In this document: positions 38,881 through 48,022 of the stretch, piece by piece
How the letters are laid out: each line of letters opens with the position of its first letter
How positions within the stretch are numbered: the stretch's first letter is position 1
Source of the DNA: Chloroflexota bacterium
GTDB taxonomy: Bacteria; Chloroflexota; Limnocylindria; P2-11E
DNA length: 64,000 bases
Direction: 5' to 3'
NCBI GenBank assembly: GCA_021787445.1
Contig: JAJYLV010000004.1
Location: 17,095-81,094 of the forward strand
Notes under the pieces: model-generated
Databases searched by the model: none
Seen by the model: the letters and a program-made list of their open reading frames with translations, nothing else
What the model was told of the DNA's origin: nothing
Made by a program: the position numbers and the translations under genes

Positions 38881-38953
38881 GGGGCTGTAGCTCAGAGGAC
38901 AGAGCAGGTCCGTCCTAAGGACTTGGTCGTGGGTTCGACTCCCACCAGCCCCT
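38881..38953 (+). tRNA. tRNA-Arg (anticodon CCU)
   Basis: Acceptor GGGGCUG/CAGCCCC, D arm GCUC-AGAGGACA-GAGC, anticodon arm GGUCC-GUCCUAA-GGACU, T arm GUGGG-UUCGACU-CCCAC. Discriminator U (atypical). Confidence 0.75.
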
Positions 38954-39015
38954 CCGCCGGACCGGAGATCGCTGGTCGCCGTGCCCTTACGCTGCCCCTT
39001 ACACTGAACCGTCAG

Positions 39016-39088
39016 CGGGGTGTAGCGCAGTTGGTAGCGCGCAGCGTTCGGGACGCTGAGGTCGCCGGATCGTGCCCGGCCACCCCGA
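39016..39088 (+). tRNA. tRNA-Pro (anticodon CGG) with an atypical T-loop (A54/U58 swap)
   Basis: Acceptor CGGGGUG/CACCCCG, D arm GCGC-AGUUGGUA-GCGC, anticodon arm CAGCG-UUCGGGA-CGCUG, T arm GCCGG-AUCGUGC-CCGGC, discriminator A. Confidence 0.65.
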
Positions 39089-39130
39089 CAGTCGTGGCCT
39101 GGCAGGCATCCCTTCAGGTCGTGTCGCCTC

Positions 39131-39778
39131 TTGCGTTTGATAGAACAGGCGTTCTATGGTCGATCCGTGCCCGCAGAGCTTCACGCCACGTACCAGCTCT
39201 GCACCCGCTGCGGCAGCCTCAAGCCCCTTGAAGAGTTCCATCGCCGCGGAGCGGCCCGACAGCACTGGTGCAAGTCATGTCGCAAGGTGTGGGACTCCGC
39301 CTATCACGCACGAACGAAGCCGGTCCGTTTACGCCAGAAGCGCGCGCACAAGCGTCGCTTGCTGGAGTGGATGCGCGATATCAAGACGTCGCGACCATGC
39401 GCCGATTGCGGCGGCCGTTTCCATCCAGCCGCCATGACGTTCGACCATTTGCCTGGCCAGAAGAAGATCGCCGCCATAGCCGAGCTCGTGAAAAGGGGAT
39501 GTACAGGACTCGCGGAGGCGGAGATCCTCAAGTGCGAAGTCGTCTGCGCGAACTGCCATGCCGTCCGCACCTACGAGCGGCGCGAGGCCGAGAGGCGGGC
39601 ACGCGCGATACCGGATCATTCGATCCGTGAGGGACGCGGTCGTTATGCGTCTTGCCCTCTCGATCAGATCGTCGCCGCCGAGACCGACATCACCGGCGGC
39701 AGGTACTGGGCGACGAGCGCCCACGTGCGGCCCTCGTCGGCGCTTCCCCAGACCTCGCCGCCTTCGGTCCCGAAATAG
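39131..39778 (+). CDS. HNH endonuclease family protein (Cys-rich zinc-finger N-terminus plus HNH motif), atypically low GC
   Basis: CTRCG...CKSCRK, CADCGG, FDHLPGQKK...CANCHAVRT (HNH nuclease signature). GC about 60% with low GC3 against about 72% locally. TTG/GTG start. The 3' end overlaps the convergent BNR gene by about 115 nt. Confidence 0.65.
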   Translation: MRLIEQAFYGRSVPAELHATYQLCTRCGSLKPLEEFHRRGAARQHWCKSCRKVWDSAYHARTKPVRLRQKRAHKRRLLEWMRDIKTSRPCADCGGRFHPAAMTFDHLPGQKKIAAIAELVKRGCTGLAEAEILKCEVVCANCHAVRTYERREAERRARAIPDHSIREGRGRYASCPLDQIVAAETDITGGRYWATSAHVRPSSALPQTSPPSVPK

Positions 39779-40824
39779 ATCCCCGCCGGGTCGAGCCGGT
39801 CCACCGCCATCCCTTCGCGGAGCACCTCGGAGCGCGCCCCCTTCGGCAGACCGCGCGCGTGGCGCTTCCACGACCGGCCCGCATCGGTCGTGGCATAGAC
39901 CGCGATGCCGGGGTCCGGCGCGATCCGCGTCTGCCCTTCGAGCGGGATCACGTACGCCGTCTTCGGGTCACGCGGGTGGATCGCCGATGCGAAGCCGAAC
40001 GAATACTTGTCGAACTGCAGGCTCGCCTCGGGGAGCCCGGCGCTCGTCTCGTGCCAGCCCGCTTCTCCATCGTTCAGCCAGTACACCCCGAAATGGTTCT
40101 GCTGGAAGCGCACCCCCGGGGTCGTCGGGTGGGCGACGAGGTGATGCACGCAGAACCCGACCTCGGGCTCCTTCTGCGGATCCATCGGGTTGGCGAGCCC
40201 CTTGTTGCGCGTGGCCCACGTCCTCCCGCCGTCCGCCGACTCGAACACGCCCACCGCGCTGATGCCCACCTGCATCTTCTTGGCATCCGCGGCGTCGATG
40301 GCGATCGAGTGCAGGATCAGGCCGCCGGCGCCGGGGTTCCACTGGTCGTGCGTCGGATGATCGGTGAGCGACGCGACCTCGCTCCACGTCTCGCCGCGGT
40401 CATCGCTGCGGAAGAGCGCCGCCGGCTCGATGCCCGCCCACATGACCTTCGGCTGCGAGGAATGGCCCGGCTCGATGTGCCACGTGCGCTCGAACACGAG
40501 CTCACGCGTCACCTGCTTCGGCATCTGCTCGCCTTCGACCCAGGTGTGGTACGTCGCCACCCTGCCCTTGGCGAACGCGGGGTTCGAGACCACTTTCCAC
40601 GTCTTCCCCTGATCCCGGCTGACGCGGATCTTCGGGCCGCCCCACGTGAGGTTGCACGCCGCGAACATCGACTCGCCGTCGCGTGGATCGAACGCCATGT
40701 GGTGTACGGGCTCACCGGGAAAGAGCGGCCCTTCCGCCGTCCACCGCTTGCGCCCGCCGCCGGCGCGAAAGATATACGCGCCCTTCTTGGTGCCGACGAG
40801 CACCGCGACCTTCTTCGCCGCCAT
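39664..40824 (-). CDS. cytoplasmic BNR/Asp-box repeat beta-propeller protein (sialidase-like fold)
   Basis: Five Asp-box repeats (SRDQGKTW, SDDRGETW, SADGGRTW, TTDAGRSW, SADEGRTW). No signal peptide. ATG overlaps the stop of the upstream MoaD-like gene (ATGA). Confidence 0.75.
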   Translation of the reverse strand: MAAKKVAVLVGTKKGAYIFRAGGGRKRWTAEGPLFPGEPVHHMAFDPRDGESMFAACNLTWGGPKIRVSRDQGKTWKVVSNPAFAKGRVATYHTWVEGEQMPKQVTRELVFERTWHIEPGHSSQPKVMWAGIEPAALFRSDDRGETWSEVASLTDHPTHDQWNPGAGGLILHSIAIDAADAKKMQVGISAVGVFESADGGRTWATRNKGLANPMDPQKEPEVGFCVHHLVAHPTTPGVRFQQNHFGVYWLNDGEAGWHETSAGLPEASLQFDKYSFGFASAIHPRDPKTAYVIPLEGQTRIAPDPGIAVYATTDAGRSWKRHARGLPKGARSEVLREGMAVDRLDPAGIYFGTEGGEVWGSADEGRTWALVAQYLPPVMSVSAATI

Positions 40825-41105
40825 CAGTCCCCTCCCGACATCGCCGGCACGAGGGTGAGGACGTCGCCCTCGCGGAGGGGCGTCTTCTCTCCCTTCAGCC
40901 GGCGGATCTCGTCCTCGTTCCGGAAGACGTTCAGATGCTGACGGATGCGGCCCTGTTCGTCACGGATGCGCTCGCGCAGCCCCGGCAGCTCGCCCGGCAA
41001 CACGTCGAGCGCCTCGCCGACCGTTCGCGCATCGATCGCGACGTGGCGCACGCCGCCCGCCATCTCGCTGAAAGCGCCGTGGAGCCGCACCGTCACGCGC
41101 GCCAT
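40824..41105 (-). CDS. MoaD/ThiS-family beta-grasp (ubiquitin-like) protein ending GlyGly-Asp
   Basis: 93 aa with the MoaD-like pattern and a C-terminus ...LTLVPAMSGGD. Nine nt downstream of the kinase gene. Confidence 0.7.
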   Translation of the reverse strand: MARVTVRLHGAFSEMAGGVRHVAIDARTVGEALDVLPGELPGLRERIRDEQGRIRQHLNVFRNEDEIRRLKGEKTPLREGDVLTLVPAMSGGD

Positions 41106-41114
41106 CGCCGGACG

Positions 41115-42059
41115 CTACTCCGAGCGCGACCCCGTGTCACCCACGACGCCCGCGCCGATGTCGACGAGCGACCGCAGCAGGCGATAGCGCTCGTCGACGG
41201 CCTCCGGCGTCGCTCGGGCGACGCCGTCGACGCTGAAGGTCTCGACGGCGAACGACGCGCTCACCGTTCCGTGCACGACCGCGCGCCGGAGCTCCACGGG
41301 GTCCGTCCGTCCTACTGCGGCGAGGTGACCGACGAATCCTCCGGCGAAAGAGTCCCCCGCACCGGTCGGGTCCTGCACCTTCTCGAGCGGGTACGCCGGC
41401 GACCAGAACACGCCGCCGTCGTGCAGGAAGAGCATCGCGCCGTGCTCGCCGCGCTTGACGACGAGGGCCGTCGGGCCGAGATCGAGGATCTCGCGCGCCG
41501 CGCGGATGATGCTGAACGTCTGGGCGAACTGGCGAGCCTCGCCCTCGTTGATGCACACGACGTCGGCGCGGGACATCACCGTGGCCACCGCGTCGCGCTT
41601 GAATTCCAGCCAGTAGTTCATCGAATCCATGGCGATGAGCTGCGGCCTCCCGACCTGGTCGAGGAGGTCCAGCTGGATGTCCGGATCGATGTTCGCCAGG
41701 AACACGTACGGCACGTCCCGCTTGCCGTCCGGGACGACCGGATGCCAGTCCGCGAAGACGCCGAGGTCCGTGTTGAGCGTCTCGGCCGCGCTCATGTCGT
41801 AGTCGTAGCGCCCGTGCCAGCGGAACGAGCGGCCGGGGCGGCGCTCGATCCCGGCCACGTCGATGCCCTCGGCGCGCAGCCGCTCGATGTCCCCTTCTCG
41901 GAAGTCCTCGCCCACCACGGCGACGACGTGGACCGGCGCGTAGCGGCTGGCCGCGAGCGCGAAGTACGACGCGGCGCCGCCGAGGACGTCGCGGCGCCGA
42001 TCGAACGGCGTCTGGACGTCGTCGTACGCCACGGAGCCGACGACGAGGATCTCCGGCAC
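41115..42059 (-). CDS. PfkB-family carbohydrate/nucleoside kinase (ribokinase-like)
   Basis: PfkB signature 2 DPTGAGDSFAGGF and an N-terminal GG-type motif (VVGSVAYDD). GTG start 18 nt after the CoA-transferase stop. Confidence 0.8.
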   Translation of the reverse strand: MPEILVVGSVAYDDVQTPFDRRRDVLGGAASYFALAASRYAPVHVVAVVGEDFREGDIERLRAEGIDVAGIERRPGRSFRWHGRYDYDMSAAETLNTDLGVFADWHPVVPDGKRDVPYVFLANIDPDIQLDLLDQVGRPQLIAMDSMNYWLEFKRDAVATVMSRADVVCINEGEARQFAQTFSIIRAAREILDLGPTALVVKRGEHGAMLFLHDGGVFWSPAYPLEKVQDPTGAGDSFAGGFVGHLAAVGRTDPVELRRAVVHGTVSASFAVETFSVDGVARATPEAVDERYRLLRSLVDIGAGVVGDTGSRSE

Positions 42060-42076
42060 GCGATGGACGATACGGG

Positions 42077-43483
42077 CTAGATCGCGCCCTCGCGCCGCAG
42101 CGCCTCGATCTCCGCGCCGCTGTACCCGAGCTCTCCGAGGACCTCGTCGGTGTGCTCGCCCAGGAGCGGAGGGTGCCGGCGGACCGACGGCGGCGTGAGG
42201 TCCATGCGGACGGGGATCCCGGGAGCGCGGACCCGGCCGGCGACGGGGTGGTCGGTCTCGGCGATGAGACCGAGGTGCTTCACGACCGGGTCGTGGAAGA
42301 CCTCCTGCAGGTCGTTGATCGGCCCGACGGGGACGTTCGCTTCGCGCAGCCTCCGCACGACCTCCGCCTTCGGGAGGTCGCCGATACGGGTGGACATCGC
42401 GGCGACGAGCGCGTCGCGATTCCGTAGACGCGCACGATTGCCGGCGAAGCGCTCGTCGCTCGGGAGATCCTCGAGGTCGAGCGCGTGGCAGGCGCGCCCG
42501 AACAGGGCGTTGTTGCCACAGCACACGTTCACGTAGCCGTCCGACGCCTTGAACGTCTGATACGGCGCGATGGAAGCGTGGAGGTTCCCCTCGGGCCGCG
42601 GCACGGTGCCGTCCGCGAAGTAGCGTGCGGCCTGTCGCGAGAGGAGCGCCACCTGGCCCCCGATCATCGTCGCGTCGATGACCTGGCCCGTGCCGGTCCG
42701 CGCGCGCGCGTGGAGCGCGGCCACGATGGCGAACGCCGCGAACATGCCCGCGACCATGTCGCCCTGCGGGACGCCGACCATCGTCGGCATGCCGCCCGGC
42801 TGGCCGGTCAGACTCATGATGCCGCCCATCCCCTGGACGATGAGGTCGTACGCCGCCCACGCACGGCCGGGGCCGTCCTGGCCGAAGCCGGAGATCCGGC
42901 AGAGGACCGCGCGCGGCGCGATCGCGCGGATCCGCTCGGGCGGGAAGCCGAGGCGCTCGAGCGTGCCGGGGCTGAAGTTCTCGACGACGACGTCCGCGTC
43001 CTCGATGAGGCGCTCGAGGATCCTCTTGCCCTCCGCGTTCTTCAGGTCGATCGTCACGCTCCGCTTGTTGCGGTTGATGGAGAGGTAGTAGGCCGAGACG
43101 CCGTTCACGTCGGGCGGCGCCCACTCCCGGGTCTCGTCGCCGGTCCCGGGCATCTCGACCTTGATGACGTCCGCGCCGTGGTCCCCCAGCATCAGCGTGC
43201 AGTACGGCCCGGCGAGAGCGCGCGTGAGGTCGACCACGCGGATGCCGTCGAGCGCGCCCCCCGTGCCGCCGCTGATCGCCGGCAGCACCTCGATCGTGTC
43301 GCCGGCGCGCAGCCTCATCGAGGCCTCGCACTGCTCGCCGTTCAGTACGTAAGCGGCCGTCGCGCCGGTCGGTATCCCGACGGCCGACAAGACCTCGGCG
43401 ACCGTCAGTCCGTCACCGTGGACCTCGAGGACCTTCCCGGGCGCGAACTGGCGGAGCTCCCCGTGGAGGATGAGGCGGACCAC
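42077..43483 (-). CDS. fusion protein: N-terminal ThiS/MoaD-like beta-grasp domain (ends ...PAISGG) + family III CoA-transferase (CaiB/BaiF/Frc family)
   Basis: Residues 1-73 MVRLILHGELRQF...VAEVLSAVGIP...AAYVLNGEQCEASMRLRAGDTIEVLPAISGG fit the ThiS/MoaD pattern. They are followed directly by the CoA-transferase III N-terminus TGGALDGIRVVDLTRALAGPYCTLMLGDHGADVIKVE. No stop or start lies between the two parts. Confidence 0.75.
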   Translation of the reverse strand: MVRLILHGELRQFAPGKVLEVHGDGLTVAEVLSAVGIPTGATAAYVLNGEQCEASMRLRAGDTIEVLPAISGGTGGALDGIRVVDLTRALAGPYCTLMLGDHGADVIKVEMPGTGDETREWAPPDVNGVSAYYLSINRNKRSVTIDLKNAEGKRILERLIEDADVVVENFSPGTLERLGFPPERIRAIAPRAVLCRISGFGQDGPGRAWAAYDLIVQGMGGIMSLTGQPGGMPTMVGVPQGDMVAGMFAAFAIVAALHARARTGTGQVIDATMIGGQVALLSRQAARYFADGTVPRPEGNLHASIAPYQTFKASDGYVNVCCGNNALFGRACHALDLEDLPSDERFAGNRARLRNRDALVAAMSTRIGDLPKAEVVRRLREANVPVGPINDLQEVFHDPVVKHLGLIAETDHPVAGRVRAPGIPVRMDLTPPSVRRHPPLLGEHTDEVLGELGYSGAEIEALRREGAI

Positions 43484-43571: not shown

Positions 43572-44228
43572 ATGGCGCTGCCGCTGTTCCCGCTGAACAG
43601 CGTGCTCTTCCCCGACATGCTCATGCCGCTGCACATCTTCGAGCCGCGCTACCGCCTCCTCGTGCAGCGGTGTCTCGAGGACGGCACGCCTTTCGGCATC
43701 GTCCTCATCCAGGAAGGAGAAGAGGTGGGGCCCGAAGCGATACCCCACCGTGTGGGAACGAGCGCCGAGATCGTCGCGCACGCCCCGCTTCCCGACGGTC
43801 GCTCGCTCATCACCGTCCGTGGCGGCAAGCGCTTCGAGATCGACTCGGTGCAGAGCGACGCCGCGCCGTACCTCGTCGGCCACGTGCGCTACCTCGACGA
43901 CGCGCCGGAGGAGGCCGCGCGCCGGCTCGCCGACGTCGTCGCGGAGGCGTACGCCGACTACGTCGTGGGCGTCGTGGCGGCGACCGGCGGCGTGCGGCGC
44001 GAGGTCCCTGTCGTCGACGAGATCCAGGGCGGCTCGCCCTGCGACGTCTCCTACCGCGTCGCGGCCGGTCTCGCCGTCGAGGACGACGAGCAGCAGATGC
44101 TCCTCGAGACGGCGACGGCGCACGAGCGCCTCGTCCGCGAACGGGAGATCATCTCGCGAGAATGCGCGCTGCTCACCGAGATGCTGGTGCGCATGCGCGC
44201 CCGTGGGGAAGGACCGACGCTGCACTAG
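43572..44228 (+). CDS. Lon N-terminal (LON substrate-binding, PUA-like) domain protein, stand-alone
   Basis: LPLFPLNSVLFPDMLMPLHIFEPRYRLLVQRCLEDGTPFGIVLIQEG matches the Lon N-domain/COG2802. Divergent from the ThiS-CoA-transferase operon. GTG at 43542 is an alternative start. Confidence 0.7.
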   Translation: MALPLFPLNSVLFPDMLMPLHIFEPRYRLLVQRCLEDGTPFGIVLIQEGEEVGPEAIPHRVGTSAEIVAHAPLPDGRSLITVRGGKRFEIDSVQSDAAPYLVGHVRYLDDAPEEAARRLADVVAEAYADYVVGVVAATGGVRREVPVVDEIQGGSPCDVSYRVAAGLAVEDDEQQMLLETATAHERLVREREIISRECALLTEMLVRMRARGEGPTLH

Positions 44229-44246: not shown

Positions 44247-45821
44247 CTAGGCGATACCCTCGGCGAAGCGCACGACCCCATCGACCACCGTCGCGCTGAC
44301 ATGGAGGCCCGGCCAGTCCGGCGGCGGCACGCGGGCGAGGTCGGCCGATACGACGGTCGCGTCGCAGCGCTTGCCCACCTCGAGCGTCCCGAGCTCGGCC
44401 TCGCGGCCGAGCGCGTACGCGACGCCCGCGCTGTAGGCGCCGAGCGCCTCGTCCAGCGTGAGCGCCTGCTCCGGATGCCACGGCCCCGCGTCGCCCGGGC
44501 GCATCCGCGTCACGGCGGCGTGGATCCCGAGGAGCGGGTCGATCGGCTCGACGGGCGCGTCCGACCCGAACGCGAGCACCGCACCGCCGTCGCTCAGGCT
44601 CCGCCAGGGGTAGGCGCGCGCGGTGCGCGCAGCGCCCCAGTAGCGATCGGCGAGGTCGCGATCGCTCGTCGCGTGGATCGGCTGCATGGAGGCGACGATC
44701 CCGAGCGCGCCGAAGCGCGAGAGGTCATCGCTCCGGACGAGCTGGATGTGCTCCACCCGCTGTCGCAGCTGCGGGGCCGTGCGGCGCGTCGGCTCGATCG
44801 CGTCGAGCGCGACGTGCACGGCCCGGTCGCCGATGGCGTGGATGGCGACGGAGATGTCCGCCGCCGCGGCCGTCGCCACACGCTCCGCGAGCCGGTCGGG
44901 CTCGATGGTGAGGACGCCTCGGTCGCGCGTCCCTCCGTATGGCTCCTCGAGCGCAGCGGTCTGCGATCCGAGCGCGCCGTCGGTGAAGATCTTGAGCGGC
45001 CCGATCCGCAGGAGGTCGTCGCCGTATCCGGTGCGCAGCCCGAGCGCGATCGCTTCGTCGAGCCGCGCGAGCGGCAGCCCTTGGTGGATCCGCAGCCCGA
45101 GCTCGCCTCGGGCGCGCATGCGGTCGAACGCGCCCAGGGGGATCGTGCCGACGAAGTCGTCGAGGCATCCGATGAGCGTCAGCCCGCGGCGCCACGCCTC
45201 GGCCTGCCCGAGCCGCGCGAGCTCGTAGCGCTCCTGGGCGTCGGGCTGCGGGAGCACGCGGTCGACGAGGCCGATCGCGTTCTCCTTGAGGATGCCGGTG
45301 GGGGCGCCGCCCGCGTCGCGCTCGACGACGCCGCCGGGCGGCACACGGGTGTCGGCGCGGATCTCGGCGATCTCGAGCGCTCGCGTGTTGGTCCACCGCG
45401 CGTGGCCGTCACGGCTGCGCAGCGCCGCGGGGCGCCCGTGGGAGACGCGGTCGAGCTCCTTCGCCGTCGGCCAGCGTCCCCACGCGTTCTTGTCGAAGCG
45501 ACCGCCGAGGATCCATCGTCCCTCCGCGAGACCGCTGGCGTAGGCGTCGATCCGCGACAGCGCCTCGTCGATCGTCGCCGCGTCGCTGATGTCGATGCGG
45601 CTCATCTGCTGCGCCCACCACACGAAGTGGCAGTGCACGTCGCCCCATCCGGGGACCATGAGGCCGCCACGAAGGTCGATCCGCTCCGCGCCGCCGGCCT
45701 CCCGCGCGAGATCCTCCGCGCGCCCCACCGCCGCGACGCGCCCGTCGCGCGCGAGGAGCGCCTCCGCGCTCGTACCGCCCTTCACCTGAACGCGACCGCC
45801 GTGGAAGAGGACCGCGTTCAC
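44247..45821 (-). CDS. metal-dependent amidohydrolase (amidohydrolase 3 / YtcJ-like family)
   Basis: 524 aa. HxH metal motif (DVHCHF) and amidohydrolase_3 C-terminal motifs (FGSDAPV). GTG start overlaps the HAD gene stop (GTGA). Upstream track extension discounted. Confidence 0.75.
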   Translation of the reverse strand: MNAVLFHGGRVQVKGGTSAEALLARDGRVAAVGRAEDLAREAGGAERIDLRGGLMVPGWGDVHCHFVWWAQQMSRIDISDAATIDEALSRIDAYASGLAEGRWILGGRFDKNAWGRWPTAKELDRVSHGRPAALRSRDGHARWTNTRALEIAEIRADTRVPPGGVVERDAGGAPTGILKENAIGLVDRVLPQPDAQERYELARLGQAEAWRRGLTLIGCLDDFVGTIPLGAFDRMRARGELGLRIHQGLPLARLDEAIALGLRTGYGDDLLRIGPLKIFTDGALGSQTAALEEPYGGTRDRGVLTIEPDRLAERVATAAAADISVAIHAIGDRAVHVALDAIEPTRRTAPQLRQRVEHIQLVRSDDLSRFGALGIVASMQPIHATSDRDLADRYWGAARTARAYPWRSLSDGGAVLAFGSDAPVEPIDPLLGIHAAVTRMRPGDAGPWHPEQALTLDEALGAYSAGVAYALGREAELGTLEVGKRCDATVVSADLARVPPPDWPGLHVSATVVDGVVRFAEGIA

Positions 45822-46735
45822 AGGCCGCGTTCGACCAGGGACGGGATCTCGGTAAGGTCGCGGACGATCGCGTCCGGACGCACCCGAATGCCCGCCGGCG
45901 CCCCGCAGCCACCGCACATCACCGTCCCGTCGCGCAGGAAGAGATCCTCCGACGGGTGCTCGCAGCTTTCGGGACCGCGCCGACGCGGCTCCCGCCACGG
46001 GCTCGACGGGACATCGCCCTCGCGAGCCAGCGCGTCGGCGTAGTCCGACCGGCGCCAGATCCCGCGCATGCCGATCTGCTGCGCCCCCCAGACATCGGCG
46101 ATCAGGTTGTCGCCGACGTGGAATGCCTCCTCCGGACGCGCGTCCGCGATCTCCAGCGCCCGCTCGAATATCGCGGGGTGCGGCTTCCGCCAGCGCGCGC
46201 TGTGCGAGCTCACCACGCCGTACACCGCGTCCTCCAGGCCGAAGCACCGCCAGTCGTCGAGCACCTCCGCGTCCCCGCGCGAGAGGGTGTTCGTCACGAG
46301 AACGACGCGAAGTCCGCGGTCGCTGCACCAGCGGACCGTATCGAGGGCGCCGCGCACCGGGGTCGAGACATCCCGCAGAGGGACGCACATGAGCACCCGA
46401 AGCCGATCGAGGTCGAGGCCGTCGAGCTCGAGGCCCCGCCGTTGGAACCACGCGCGGATCCACTCCAGGGTCTCCTGGCGCGCGTCCTGCGGCGCGAAGC
46501 GATCTCCCCTTTCGTCCCGCGCCGCGAGGGCCTTCGCGAGCGGCACCGACCAGCCGGGCTCGAGGTGCGCGTCCATGAGATCGTCAAGCCACGCTTGCTC
46601 ACCGAGCTCAGCGCACACCTGCTCCCGCATCCGGCTCCGCAGCAGCTCCCGTGGCGCCCAATGCTCGACGAGCGTGTCGCCGACGTCGAAGAACGCCGCT
46701 CGCAGCGTCACCTGGGTATCGTACGGATCGCGCAC
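45818..46735 (-). CDS. HAD-family hydrolase with a Cys-rich C-terminal tail
   Basis: HAD motif I FFDVGDTLV, motif II VLVTNT, conserved Lys (KPHPAIF) and motif III HVGDNLIADV. C-terminal CGGCG. GTG start. An alternative GTG at about 46711. Confidence 0.75.
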   Translation of the reverse strand: MRDPYDTQVTLRAAFFDVGDTLVEHWAPRELLRSRMREQVCAELGEQAWLDDLMDAHLEPGWSVPLAKALAARDERGDRFAPQDARQETLEWIRAWFQRRGLELDGLDLDRLRVLMCVPLRDVSTPVRGALDTVRWCSDRGLRVVLVTNTLSRGDAEVLDDWRCFGLEDAVYGVVSSHSARWRKPHPAIFERALEIADARPEEAFHVGDNLIADVWGAQQIGMRGIWRRSDYADALAREGDVPSSPWREPRRRGPESCEHPSEDLFLRDGTVMCGGCGAPAGIRVRPDAIVRDLTEIPSLVERGL

Positions 46736-47187: not shown

Positions 47188-47691
47188 CTACGGGATCTTC
47201 TTCAGCTCGTCCTCGATCTCGGCCATGTCGGGGACCTCGCGGAGCGCGTGCACGTCGATGTAGCGCACGATCCCCGCACGGTCGATCACGAAGATCGCCC
47301 GCTCCGGCCGCCCGACGCCCTCGTTGAAGACGCCGTAGGCGCGGGAGAGCGCGCCGTGCGGCCAGAAGTCGGAGCAGAGCGGGATCTCGACGCCCTTCAG
47401 CTCGTCGGCCCACGCCTTCAGCGCGTACACCGTGTCGCACGAGATGCCCAGCACCTGGACACCGTCCGCGCCCGCCTTCCGCTGAAGGCCGCCGAGCGCG
47501 GGGATCTCGCTGTTTCAGGTGTTGGTGAAGGCGAACGCGAAGAACGCGACGACGACCTTCTTCCCGAGGAAGGCGCCGAGCACGATCTCGCGCCCGTCGT
47601 GCGACCGAAGGGTGAACGCCGGAGCGGCGTCCCCGACCCTGAGGGTCGCCGTGTCGCTCGCGAGCTTCGTGCGTCCGACGGGCGCGGTCAC
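47188..47691 (-). CDS. AhpE-like 1-Cys peroxiredoxin with in-frame TGA at the peroxidatic position (candidate selenoprotein)
   Basis: Two adjacent track ORFs (47515..47958 and 47188..47454) lie in the same frame, separated only by TGA at 47515-47517. Joined sequence ...VVVAFFAFAFTNT-U-NSEIPALGG...VLGISCDTV...IPLCSDFWPHGALSRAYGVFNE...FVIDRAGIVRY aligns with AhpE/Prx (FFPLAFTGIC...). GTG start at about 47691. Confidence 0.65.
47455..47503 (-). promoter_or_regulatory. putative bacterial SECIS-like hairpin downstream of the in-frame UGA
   Basis: Starting about 13 nt after the UGA: CCCGCGC-UCGGCG-GCCUUC-AGCG-GAAGGC-GG-GCGCGGG. Two stacked GC-rich helices with a G-containing apical loop. Confidence 0.45.
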
Positions 47692-47709
47692 GCCCGCTAG
47701 AGTACCGGC

Positions 47710-47913
47710 GTGCCGACCGACGTTCAGCCCACGCGGATCGAGGCGGATCGCGCCCGCTTCCTCGCCTACCAGGTCGCATGTCCCTTCGACGGGACGCTGG
47801 TGGGCCCGCGCTTCGTGACGCGCGAGCAGCTCGACGTGCCCCCGAGCCCGCCGTACGCCGCGACGGTGCGCTGCCCCAACGACAAGCAGCTCTTCGAGGT
47901 GGTCTTCCGCTAG
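47710..47913 (+). CDS. hypothetical small protein (67 aa)
   Basis: GTG start, high GC3 and non-repetitive composition (LAYQVACPFDGTLVGPRFVTREQLDV...VRCPNDKQLFEVVFR). Divergent from the peroxiredoxin gene. Confidence 0.45.
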   Translation: MPTDVQPTRIEADRARFLAYQVACPFDGTLVGPRFVTREQLDVPPSPPYAATVRCPNDKQLFEVVFR

Positions 47914-47962
47914 GTGCCGGACCGGCGATGCCGGCGCCGCCCGCCCGCGGCGCCTCATCGCA

Positions 47963-48022
47963 TCAGAGCGGAGCTACTTCTTCTTCGCGCTCTTCTTCGC
48001 TGACTTCTTGGCAGCCTTCTTC
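47963..48022 (-). CDS. Lys-rich mini-protein (19 aa, MPAKKKAAKKSAKKSAKKK)
   Basis: ATG preceded by a strong SD GGGAGGGAGGUGAUCUCG. Co-directional with and 52 nt downstream of the HTH gene. Confidence 0.5.
   Translation of the reverse strand, partial: EEGCQEVSEEEREEEVAPL

Follow-up and report, generated by a model that had tools for sequence, protein, structure and literature searches.

A GlyGly-ending ThiS/MoaD-type domain fused to a family III CoA-transferase in Candidatus Limnocylindria, and an adjacent ubiquitin-like/propeller gene pair

In a stretch of 64,000 nucleotides from a Chloroflexota bacterium (contig JAJYLV010000004.1; called here, at its full length, the window), a single minus-strand gene (42077..43483) encodes a ubiquitin-like (Ubl) beta-grasp domain of the ThiS/MoaD type that ends in GlyGly (GG) and runs directly into a family III CoA-transferase of the CaiB/BaiF type. 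Judging from its conservation, this is a genuine, lineage-specific fusion gene of Candidatus (Ca.) Limnocylindria (Chloroflexota). We tentatively read it as a variant of a known thioacid-forming chemistry, and a rival explanation, in which the beta-grasp is a permanent accessory domain of an ordinary CoA-transferase, is nearly as likely. The gene had been singled out in an earlier note, made from the letters of this DNA, as the first member of a four-gene operon system, an assembly that the comparative data summarized below take apart.

Domains, conservation and descent of the fusion

Both halves of the protein are recognized by profile searches. Residues 6-73 match the Pfam family ThiS (PF02597; 38.3 bits, E=2e-9, cutoff 22.5) and, at the limit of its cutoff of 23, Ub-Mut7C (PF14451; 23.1 bits), and residues 78-445 match CoA_transf_3 (PF02515) with 438 bits, covering profile positions 1-366 of 366. 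The junction is read in a single frame as ...IEVLPAISGG-TGG-ALDGIRVVDLTRALAGPYC (PAISGG-TGG-ALDGIRVVDLT), and neither a stop nor an in-frame start codon separates GG from the transferase's first strand. The secondary structure predicted by AlphaFold (E2-6, E18-21, H28-35, E42-47, E50-52, E63-68) has the order strand-strand-helix-strand-strand-strand, with a pLDDT of 75-94 over residues 1-67. The beta-grasp start of about 73 residues with its GlyGly end and the uninterrupted run into a CaiB/BaiF enzyme, as claimed in the earlier note, are thus both borne out, and as far as profiles and predicted fold can tell the protein begins with a true beta-grasp of the ThiS/MoaD type, in frame with a family III CoA-transferase predicted to be catalytically intact. 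The full-length model (AlphaFold monomer, 51-sequence alignment) is poor, with a mean pLDDT of 58.7, a pTM of 0.43 and values mostly below 50 in the transferase core, probably owing to the shallow alignment and to the real enzyme being an interlocked dimer that was modelled as a monomer.

The best solved relative of the transferase is human SUGCT, a succinate-hydroxymethylglutarate CoA-transferase (PDB 9BR7), which aligns end to end at 45% identity (E=2e-98), followed by 4ED9 (a CaiB/BaiF-family protein), a formyl-CoA transferase and YfdE. The Asp of the QGDMVAG motif (Asp242) aligns with the active-site region of SUGCT and is invariant in 51 orthologues; the likeness to SUGCT and YfdE comprises the full-length alignment, the catalytic Asp and the fold signature. 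The differences are the extra N-terminal ThiS domain and the score against the best NCBIfam model, succinate--glutarate CoA-transferase, which at 365 bits lies far under the 750-bit equivalog cutoff. On these matches, the enzyme is apparently an active CoA-transferase for small (di)carboxylates, of the SUGCT/YfdE type.

The fusion is widespread within its lineage. Among 5.8 billion proteins searched, at least 120 clusters share this architecture (467-472 aa, 72-100% identity, both Pfam domains), and a survey of 30 GTDB species-representative loci and 60 metagenome loci, together with several look-ups, found the fused form in about 20 of the former and about 45 of the latter (~65 loci in total). 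The named clusters belong to Chloroflexota or Ca. Limnocylindria, with one labelled Methylomirabilota. The earlier note had allowed that such an architecture might already be annotated with a known function: some of the clusters do carry the JGI label 'CaiB-like acyl-CoA transferase/sulfur carrier protein', but the annotation is automatic and the architecture is functionally undescribed. GlyGly is invariant in 118 of 118 fusion homologues, and the linker that follows it (3-13 aa among the 51 orthologues) is the most variable stretch in both sequence and length. With a mean pairwise identity of 62%, versus 80% for the transferase, the beta-grasp is clearly under constraint, though less conserved than the enzyme. 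The nearest transferases beyond the class are ~50% identical and carry no ThiS domain.

This distribution also bears on the possibility, raised in the earlier note, that a sequencing or assembly frameshift had artificially joined two genes. Split versions are indeed present in some metagenome-assembled genomes (MAGs); however, they form a clade of their own with clean 4-nt overlaps, and the in-frame fusion recurs in the at least 120 independent clusters, drawn from NCBI, JGI, ENA and Logan assemblies, and in the ~65 loci, which makes an artefact extremely improbable. In two loci (L134 and L135; P0122, 101 aa) the ThiS open reading frame (ORF) extends 26 residues past GG in a shifted frame, after which the transferase resumes; either the assembly contains a frameshift here or the gene has split naturally in recent times. 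Candidate fusions outside Limnocylindria, in L045 and L047 (both 'Bacillati bacterium ANGP1') and in L071 (tblastn), were rejected as artefacts of alignment, since an unrelated upstream gene stops just before the transferase.

The ThiS/transferase pair occurs in four states: fused (the majority), split, a ThiS domain fused to an S-adenosylmethionine (SAM)-dependent methyltransferase and followed by the transferase, and ThiS-less. In the split form a ThiS-like protein of 75-77 aa ends, in every case, in GG followed by two variable residues, never more or fewer (IA, RA, VR, AA, RE, GT, RT, GA, GQ or HT); its stop overlaps the transferase start by 4 nt (TTGA or GTGA) in L018, L019 and L090, and in L148-L153 a separate 76-aa ThiS ORF lies immediately 5' of the transferase. 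In L098 (3565-5591), L101 and L102 the ThiS~SAM-methyltransferase (277-279 aa) directly precedes an orthologous transferase (66-71% identical), with a 4-nt overlap in L098, and the orthologous amidohydrolase is kept upstream. Finally, in the ThiS-less orthologues (L020, L021, L023-L026 and L028), the transferase domain is 77-79% identical and the gene starts 30-50 nt from its neighbour. In a neighbour-joining tree these forms are nested at three or more places within the fused clade, indicating that the ThiS domain has been lost repeatedly (at least three times). The four states indicate that the ThiS-like protein is a pathway-level partner of the transferase and not a rigid structural part of it, and the retention of the pair in three architectures marks the two, by this comparative evidence, as functional partners.

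The beta-grasp alone, searched against 1.8 billion representatives and complemented by a profile search of distant relatives, led mainly to free MoaD/ThiS-family proteins of 73-90 aa, many with GG as their exact end (P0121, P0128 and P0131, long repetitive proteins, were dropped as low-complexity matches). Where their context is readable, the free relatives adjoin ThiF, rhodanese-ThiF and AOR genes, as in the order AOR-ThiS-ThiF of Pseudodesulfovibrio or ferredoxin - rhodanese-ThiF - oxidoreductase - ThiS in L094; from these carrier-type contexts it follows that the N-terminal domain of the fusion descended from bona fide E1-activated carriers. As an observation in its own right, beta-grasps of the ThiS/Ub-Mut7C-type subfamily are repeatedly fused at the N-termini of unrelated enzymes: in L095 (5001-6074; P0138) such a domain, with GG kept, is joined to a CN_hydrolase (nitrilase-family) domain in a cluster with AOR, aminotransferase and alanine dehydrogenase genes.

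Proposed chemistry and rival explanations

The earlier note did not recognize its gene combination as a described system, but the pairing of a ThiS/MoaD-like protein with a CoA-transferase has precedents. The operons of PDTC (pdt) and quinolobactin (qbs) combine a ThiS/MoaD-like Ubl with an E1-rhodanese protein, a JAB protein, a CaiB-like CoA-transferase and an AMP-ligase (Iyer, Burroughs, Aravind; PMC1779556, Table 1 row 4a), and biochemical work is available for PtmU4, a member of the type III CoA-transferase family that needs its conserved Asp and converts an acyl-CoA into a thiocarboxylic acid via GG-exposed carriers (Dong et al.; PMC6006322). In the PtmU4 system the carriers are capped (GG-MV, GG-C), a JAMM protease is required, and carriers, E1 and protease are all encoded outside the cluster (PMC6006322). 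Thioacid cassettes of this kind are PtmA3/PtmU4 with PtmS1-S4 (Streptomyces platensis), QbsK/QbsL (thioquinolobactin), PdtI/PdtJ (PDTC) and YtkF/YtkG (yatakemycin) (PMC6006322; PMC1779556). The locus described here resembles them in that a GG-bearing ThiS/MoaD-type carrier domain is paired with an Asp-bearing enzyme of the type III CoA-transferase family, in that cassette carriers often have one or two residues after GG, and in that E1 and JAMM genes may lie outside the cluster. It differs in that the carrier domain is physically linked to the transferase, by fusion or translational coupling, which is undescribed for the cassettes (the domain is assigned by Pfam, and its role as sulfur donor would be that of the cassettes by analogy), and in its position in a conserved core-genome neighbourhood with no natural-product cluster.

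The MoaD-MoaE fusion MoaX of M. tuberculosis is cleaved at GG. Other Ubl-enzyme fusions of sulfur-transfer pathways are ThiS-ThiG, ThiS-sulfite reductase and MoaD-AOR (PMC1779556), and the likeness to them is that the fused ThiS/MoaD domain keeps GG, that the partner enzyme comes from the same pathway and that fused and split forms alternate among lineages. Unlike them, the fusion described here has as its partner a CoA-transferase, which is not among the fusions in PMC1779556, its domain is dispensable in several sister species, and a cleavage of the MoaX type is here putative.

A carrier fused to its user enzyme follows the logic of ThiS-ThiG and MoaD-MoaE, which suggests the same thioacid chemistry in this locus. 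We therefore favour, at somewhat less than an even chance and by analogy with the cassettes, the reading of the ThiS-transferase as a single-domain, carrier-linked variant of this chemistry. The transferase would take CoA from a donor thioester and keep a small carboxylic acid in the form of an acyl-CoA or of an acyl anhydride with Asp242, CoA transfer replacing ATP-dependent ligation in the activation of the acyl group. A peptidase and an E1, both encoded elsewhere, would respectively release or trim the Ubl at Gly73 and thiocarboxylate it, and the sulfur of the Ubl would then pass to the activated acyl group to give a thioacid, a product that in the methyltransferase variant might be methylated afterwards. 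Cleavage at GG is possible and is required by this scheme: as encoded, GG is internal (residues 72-73 of 468) with no free C-terminal carboxylate, and a carboxylate could be exposed for adenylation through proteolysis only.

The statement of the earlier note that no E1-like enzyme and no JAMM protease are nearby was borne out in the stretches scanned. The ThiF/MoeB motif [ST]NLxR[QH] is missing from every frame of the 64-kb window, as is the JAMM motif, the pattern for which was without a positive control, and no E1 or JAMM Pfam family was found among the ~40 genes scanned from 16 to 60 kb of the window. The E1 pattern recovered true ThiF genes in the control loci L091 and L094. Two candidate gaps were rejected: the ~550-bp gap between transferase and pfkB in many relatives encodes a membrane protein of ~175 aa and no JAMM peptidase, and the ~1.4-kb gap preceding the free SAMP1-like Ubl gene described below holds extracytoplasmic function (ECF) sigma and anti-sigma factors and no E1. 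In most bacteria MoeB/ThiF is encoded elsewhere in the genome, so that the lack of one in the neighbourhood carries little weight, a consideration that tells against E1-free readings.

Several observations weigh against the thioacid scheme. The fused Ubl would need cleavage in order to be thiocarboxylated, yet the linker is mostly only 3-5 residues long, and the full-length model, with its pLDDT of 58.7, is too weak for testing the geometry. The enzyme is closest to ordinary dicarboxylate CoA-transferases and has one domain, SUGCT being its nearest relative, whereas enzymes of the PtmU4 type have two tandem transferase domains and PtmU4 homologues are separate from all one-domain enzymes (PMC6006322). 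No acyl-CoA synthetase is encoded within two genes of the fusion, whose neighbours are LonN, Amidohydro_3, HAD, PfkB, Ubl and BNR genes, and neither in the 64-kb window nor in the ~8 kb around the fusion in ~95 related loci was an E1 found; the JAMM motif, by the pattern without positive control, was not seen in the window or in these loci either. Furthermore, at least seven species-level orthologues, 77-79% identical, are without ThiS, with losses at three or more places, and such repeated loss suggests that the transferase works without a dedicated Ubl. With its single domain and no adjacent acyl-CoA synthetase, the locus may work like a thioacid cassette and is not classed as a member of that group.

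Several of these observations are expected if an otherwise ordinary dicarboxylate CoA-transferase carries the beta-grasp permanently, as an accessory domain that is not cleaved off, an explanation to which we give a chance of roughly one in three and which is thus nearly as likely as the thioacid variant. The domain could serve folding or solubility, regulation or partner docking, and GlyGly could be an inherited feature of the family. In favour of such a role are the linker of 3-5 aa in most sequences, the repeated loss of ThiS with the enzyme kept, the lack of E1 genes near any locus (and of JAMM motifs, with the same limit of the pattern), the closeness of the transferase to SUGCT and YfdE, and the occurrence of the same beta-grasp subfamily N-terminal on unrelated enzymes, namely CN_hydrolase (P0138), a methyltransferase (P0129) and the Mut7-C RNases (PMC1779556). 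In the last of these, the Ub-Mut7C family, for which RNA binding was proposed and which has no conserved gene context (PMC1779556), a ThiS/MoaD-related beta-grasp is likewise the N-terminal domain of a larger enzyme, although the partner enzyme is another one. On the other hand, an accessory domain is not expected to occur as a separate, translationally coupled protein of 75-77 aa, nor on a methyltransferase upstream of the transferase; conservation ends sharply at GG, with variable sequence and length beyond it, and the closest relatives among free-standing proteins are E1-linked carriers.

A third explanation, in which the transferase uses the GlyGly carboxylate of a Ubl released at Gly73 as its CoA acceptor and so forms a Ubl-CoA thioester independently of ATP and of any E1, takes up one of the two hypotheses of the earlier note. 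It would account for the lack of a nearby E1 and would explain why a GG-bearing Ubl is tied, physically or by its translation, to an enzyme that turns carboxylates into CoA thioesters. It is nevertheless disfavoured, and in our judgement very unlikely: the encoded Ubl is always either fused or followed by two variable residues after GG and never ends in a free GG, transferases of 77-79% identity lack any Ubl, active site and sequence fit small-dicarboxylate enzymes (45% identity to SUGCT), and a methyltransferase domain can intervene between Ubl and transferase.

Neighbouring genes and a separate ubiquitin-like/propeller module

The features of the locus are collected in Table 1. Of the three junctions between the four minus-strand genes (fusion, kinase, free Ubl, propeller), the first two have gaps of 17 and 9 nt, and at the third the genes overlap by 1 nt. 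The assignments that the earlier note had made for the three downstream proteins were confirmed by profiles: a PfkB kinase, a BNR-repeat protein and a free MoaD-like Ubl with one Asp after GlyGly, which, in addition to ThiS, matches the NCBIfam model SAMP1 (NF041918) with 68.1 bits, over the 60-bit equivalog cutoff, a match that is silent on sampylation in a bacterium.

Table 1. Features of the locus in window coordinates.
Feature	Position	Strand	Basis or remark
ThiS-CoA-transferase fusion gene	42077..43483	-	468 aa; GTG start
ThiS/MoaD-type beta-grasp (Ubl) domain, aa 1-73, end PAISGG (Gly72-Gly73)	43265..43483	-	Pfam
Linker Thr-Gly-Gly, aa 74-76, from GlyGly to transferase	43256..43264	-	sequence
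Single-domain family III (CaiB/BaiF) CoA-transferase, aa 77-468 and stop codon	42077..43255	-	PF02515
Catalytic Asp242 codon	42758-42760	-	within fusion gene
PfkB-family kinase, 314 aa, DPTGAGD motif	41115..42059	-	PF00294, 82.7 bits
Free SAMP1/MoaD-like Ubl, 93 aa, end AMSGGD	40824..41105	-	ThiS 42 bits
Cytoplasmic BNR/Asp-box beta-propeller, 386 aa	39664..40824	-	BNR/Asp-box repeats (Pfam)
Stand-alone Lon N-terminal (substrate-binding) domain protein (LonN), divergent from fusion gene	43572..44228	+	PF02190, 123.9 bits
Amidohydro_3 hydrolase	44247-45821	-	Pfam; conserved upstream neighbour
HAD phosphatase	45818-46717	-	Pfam; conserved upstream neighbour

The order conserved in Limnocylindria is HAD - Amidohydro_3 - LonN (on the opposite strand) - transferase, with or without ThiS - pfkB, and a small membrane-protein gene (~175 aa) often lies between transferase and pfkB (e.g., L012, L020). 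Amidohydro_3 and HAD are conserved neighbours that do not demonstrably take part in the function of the locus. The ~40 genes from 16 to 60 kb of the window are housekeeping genes, including those for NADH dehydrogenase subunits, ABC and MFS transporters, DUF881, LonN, Amidohydro_3, HAD and peroxiredoxin, as well as FolE, GpsA, PlsY, Der, IspH and Cmk. The PADLOC defence models gave no match for six proteins of the locus, and a scan for promoters and terminators, uninformative at such GC content, returned 0 promoters and one terminator-like site on the wrong strand.

The four genes had been taken for one operon system, and a pathway in which the fusion, PfkB, the SAMP1-like Ubl and the BNR protein together thiolate or acylate a phosphorylated small molecule would fit their tight packing on one strand (17, 9, -1 nt), found in the window and in its closest relative L001, and their presence within a few kb also in L136, L137 and L147. 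However, the SAMP1-like and BNR genes occur without the fusion and pfkB in five unrelated contexts, are lacking within 8 kb of most fusion loci and, in one Limnocylindria MAG (JBGPKU01), lie on another contig than the fusion (L085 vs L022). The SAMP1-like/BNR genes of many relatives are set apart from pfkB by an ECF sigma/anti-sigma pair, and those of L019 by an ABC transporter; the sigma/anti-sigma pair is missing from the window and L001, and it is through its loss that the SAMP1-like and BNR genes were brought beside pfkB here. The reading as one system is largely refuted by these comparisons, and we regard it as improbable. By gene order across the relatives, the locus is made of a ThiS-transferase unit, a PfkB kinase that is only a syntenic neighbour outside the ThiS-transferase machinery, and an autonomous Ubl/propeller module.

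This module was found in the window (39664-41105, minus strand) and in L081-L087, L099, L100, L130, L136, L137 and L147. In every context examined a ThiS-family gene lies directly 5' of the BNR gene, overlapping it or less than 25 nt apart; in the window the BNR start overlaps the Ubl stop by 1 nt (TGATG). The pair often comes after a regulator gene, of the ArsR type or for an ECF sigma factor. Its surroundings are an ArsR-type regulator and an opposing rhodanese gene in Dormibacteraeota, and ECF sigma factor and YCII genes in a second Limnocylindria locus, on a contig of the fusion-bearing MAG other than that of the fusion; it recurs in two more metagenome contexts unrelated to these. The residue after GlyGly in the free Ubl, to which the earlier note had given weight, has no special standing, since its orthologues end after GG in nothing, D, N, R, S, G, TV, GQ or STAN, and capped carriers are a known class (PMC6006322). 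The protein resembles SAMP1/MoaD-like proteins in passing the SAMP1 cutoff and differs from them in having no UbaA-type E1 near it in the window. The propeller, modelled by AlphaFold with a pLDDT of 94.9, is a structural and sequence orthologue of PDB 3B7F (Reut_B4987, 'glycosyl hydrolase, BNR repeat'; Foldseek TM 0.88/0.92, 37% identity; phmmer E=1.3e-71), and His227, His232, His244 and Cys225 are invariant in the set of family sequences compared. No paper that mentions both MoaD/ThiS and BNR turned up in literature searches for the two. By its recurrence in unrelated surroundings, the SAMP1-like/BNR pair is an independent, widely conserved and undescribed two-gene module.

An ECF sigma factor and an anti-sigma-like membrane protein of ~260 aa lie directly 5' of the Ubl and BNR genes in L009 (3832-5176), L012, L018, L019, L034 and L003, and in L085 an ECF sigma factor is also upstream of them; the pair may be under ECF control. 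As for LonN, most Limnocylindria loci have its gene next to that of the ThiS-transferase and divergent from it, a YjeF_N gene takes its place on the opposite strand in L098, and a LonN-only gene of 33% identity (628-1167 of L094) stands beside the ferredoxin - rhodanese-ThiF - oxidoreductase - ThiS cluster of that unrelated metagenome contig. The recurrence of LonN near Ubl genes may be a coincidence or may reflect a link between the two.

Two further observations concern other parts of the window. The gene of an AhpC/TSA peroxiredoxin (47188-47973, minus strand) has an in-frame TGA at the position of the peroxidatic Cys (FAFAFTNT-[TGA]-NSEIPAL), which is kept in 14 of 14 orthologous loci found, with 57-80% identity continuing beyond the stop, and a GC-rich hairpin begins 16 nt 3' of it; these features suggest a peroxiredoxin that contains selenocysteine, the hairpin being a SECIS-like element. 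At 38881-39778, tRNA-Arg(CCT) and tRNA-Pro(CGG) are followed by a Cys-rich ORF of 215 aa (39131-39778, plus strand) that convergently overlaps the 3' end of the BNR gene and has no match in Pfam, NCBIfam or PADLOC. Its homologues lie at other positions in L018 and L112, and such shifting positions suggest a mobile HNH-like gene.

Implications

Thioacid chemistry has so far been known from a small number of gene clusters for antibiotics and siderophores, whose enzymes have two domains. If a thiocarboxylate is made by the ThiS-transferase, this chemistry would exist also in a simpler, one-domain and ligase-free form. It would then belong to the core genome conserved across Limnocylindria, an uncultured and abundant class of soil and freshwater, and the fusion would offer a Rosetta-stone pair with which to look for the substrate. 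If, instead, the beta-grasp is an accessory domain, the protein would be one more clear example of a ThiS-type fold put to use as a module that is not a carrier. The much less probable Ubl-CoA thioester would mean an E1-free activation of a ubiquitin-like protein for sulfur uptake or conjugation. Either way, the false lead of a four-gene system is stopped, and an undescribed and more widely conserved pair, formed by a Ubl and a BNR propeller of the 3B7F type, is brought to light.

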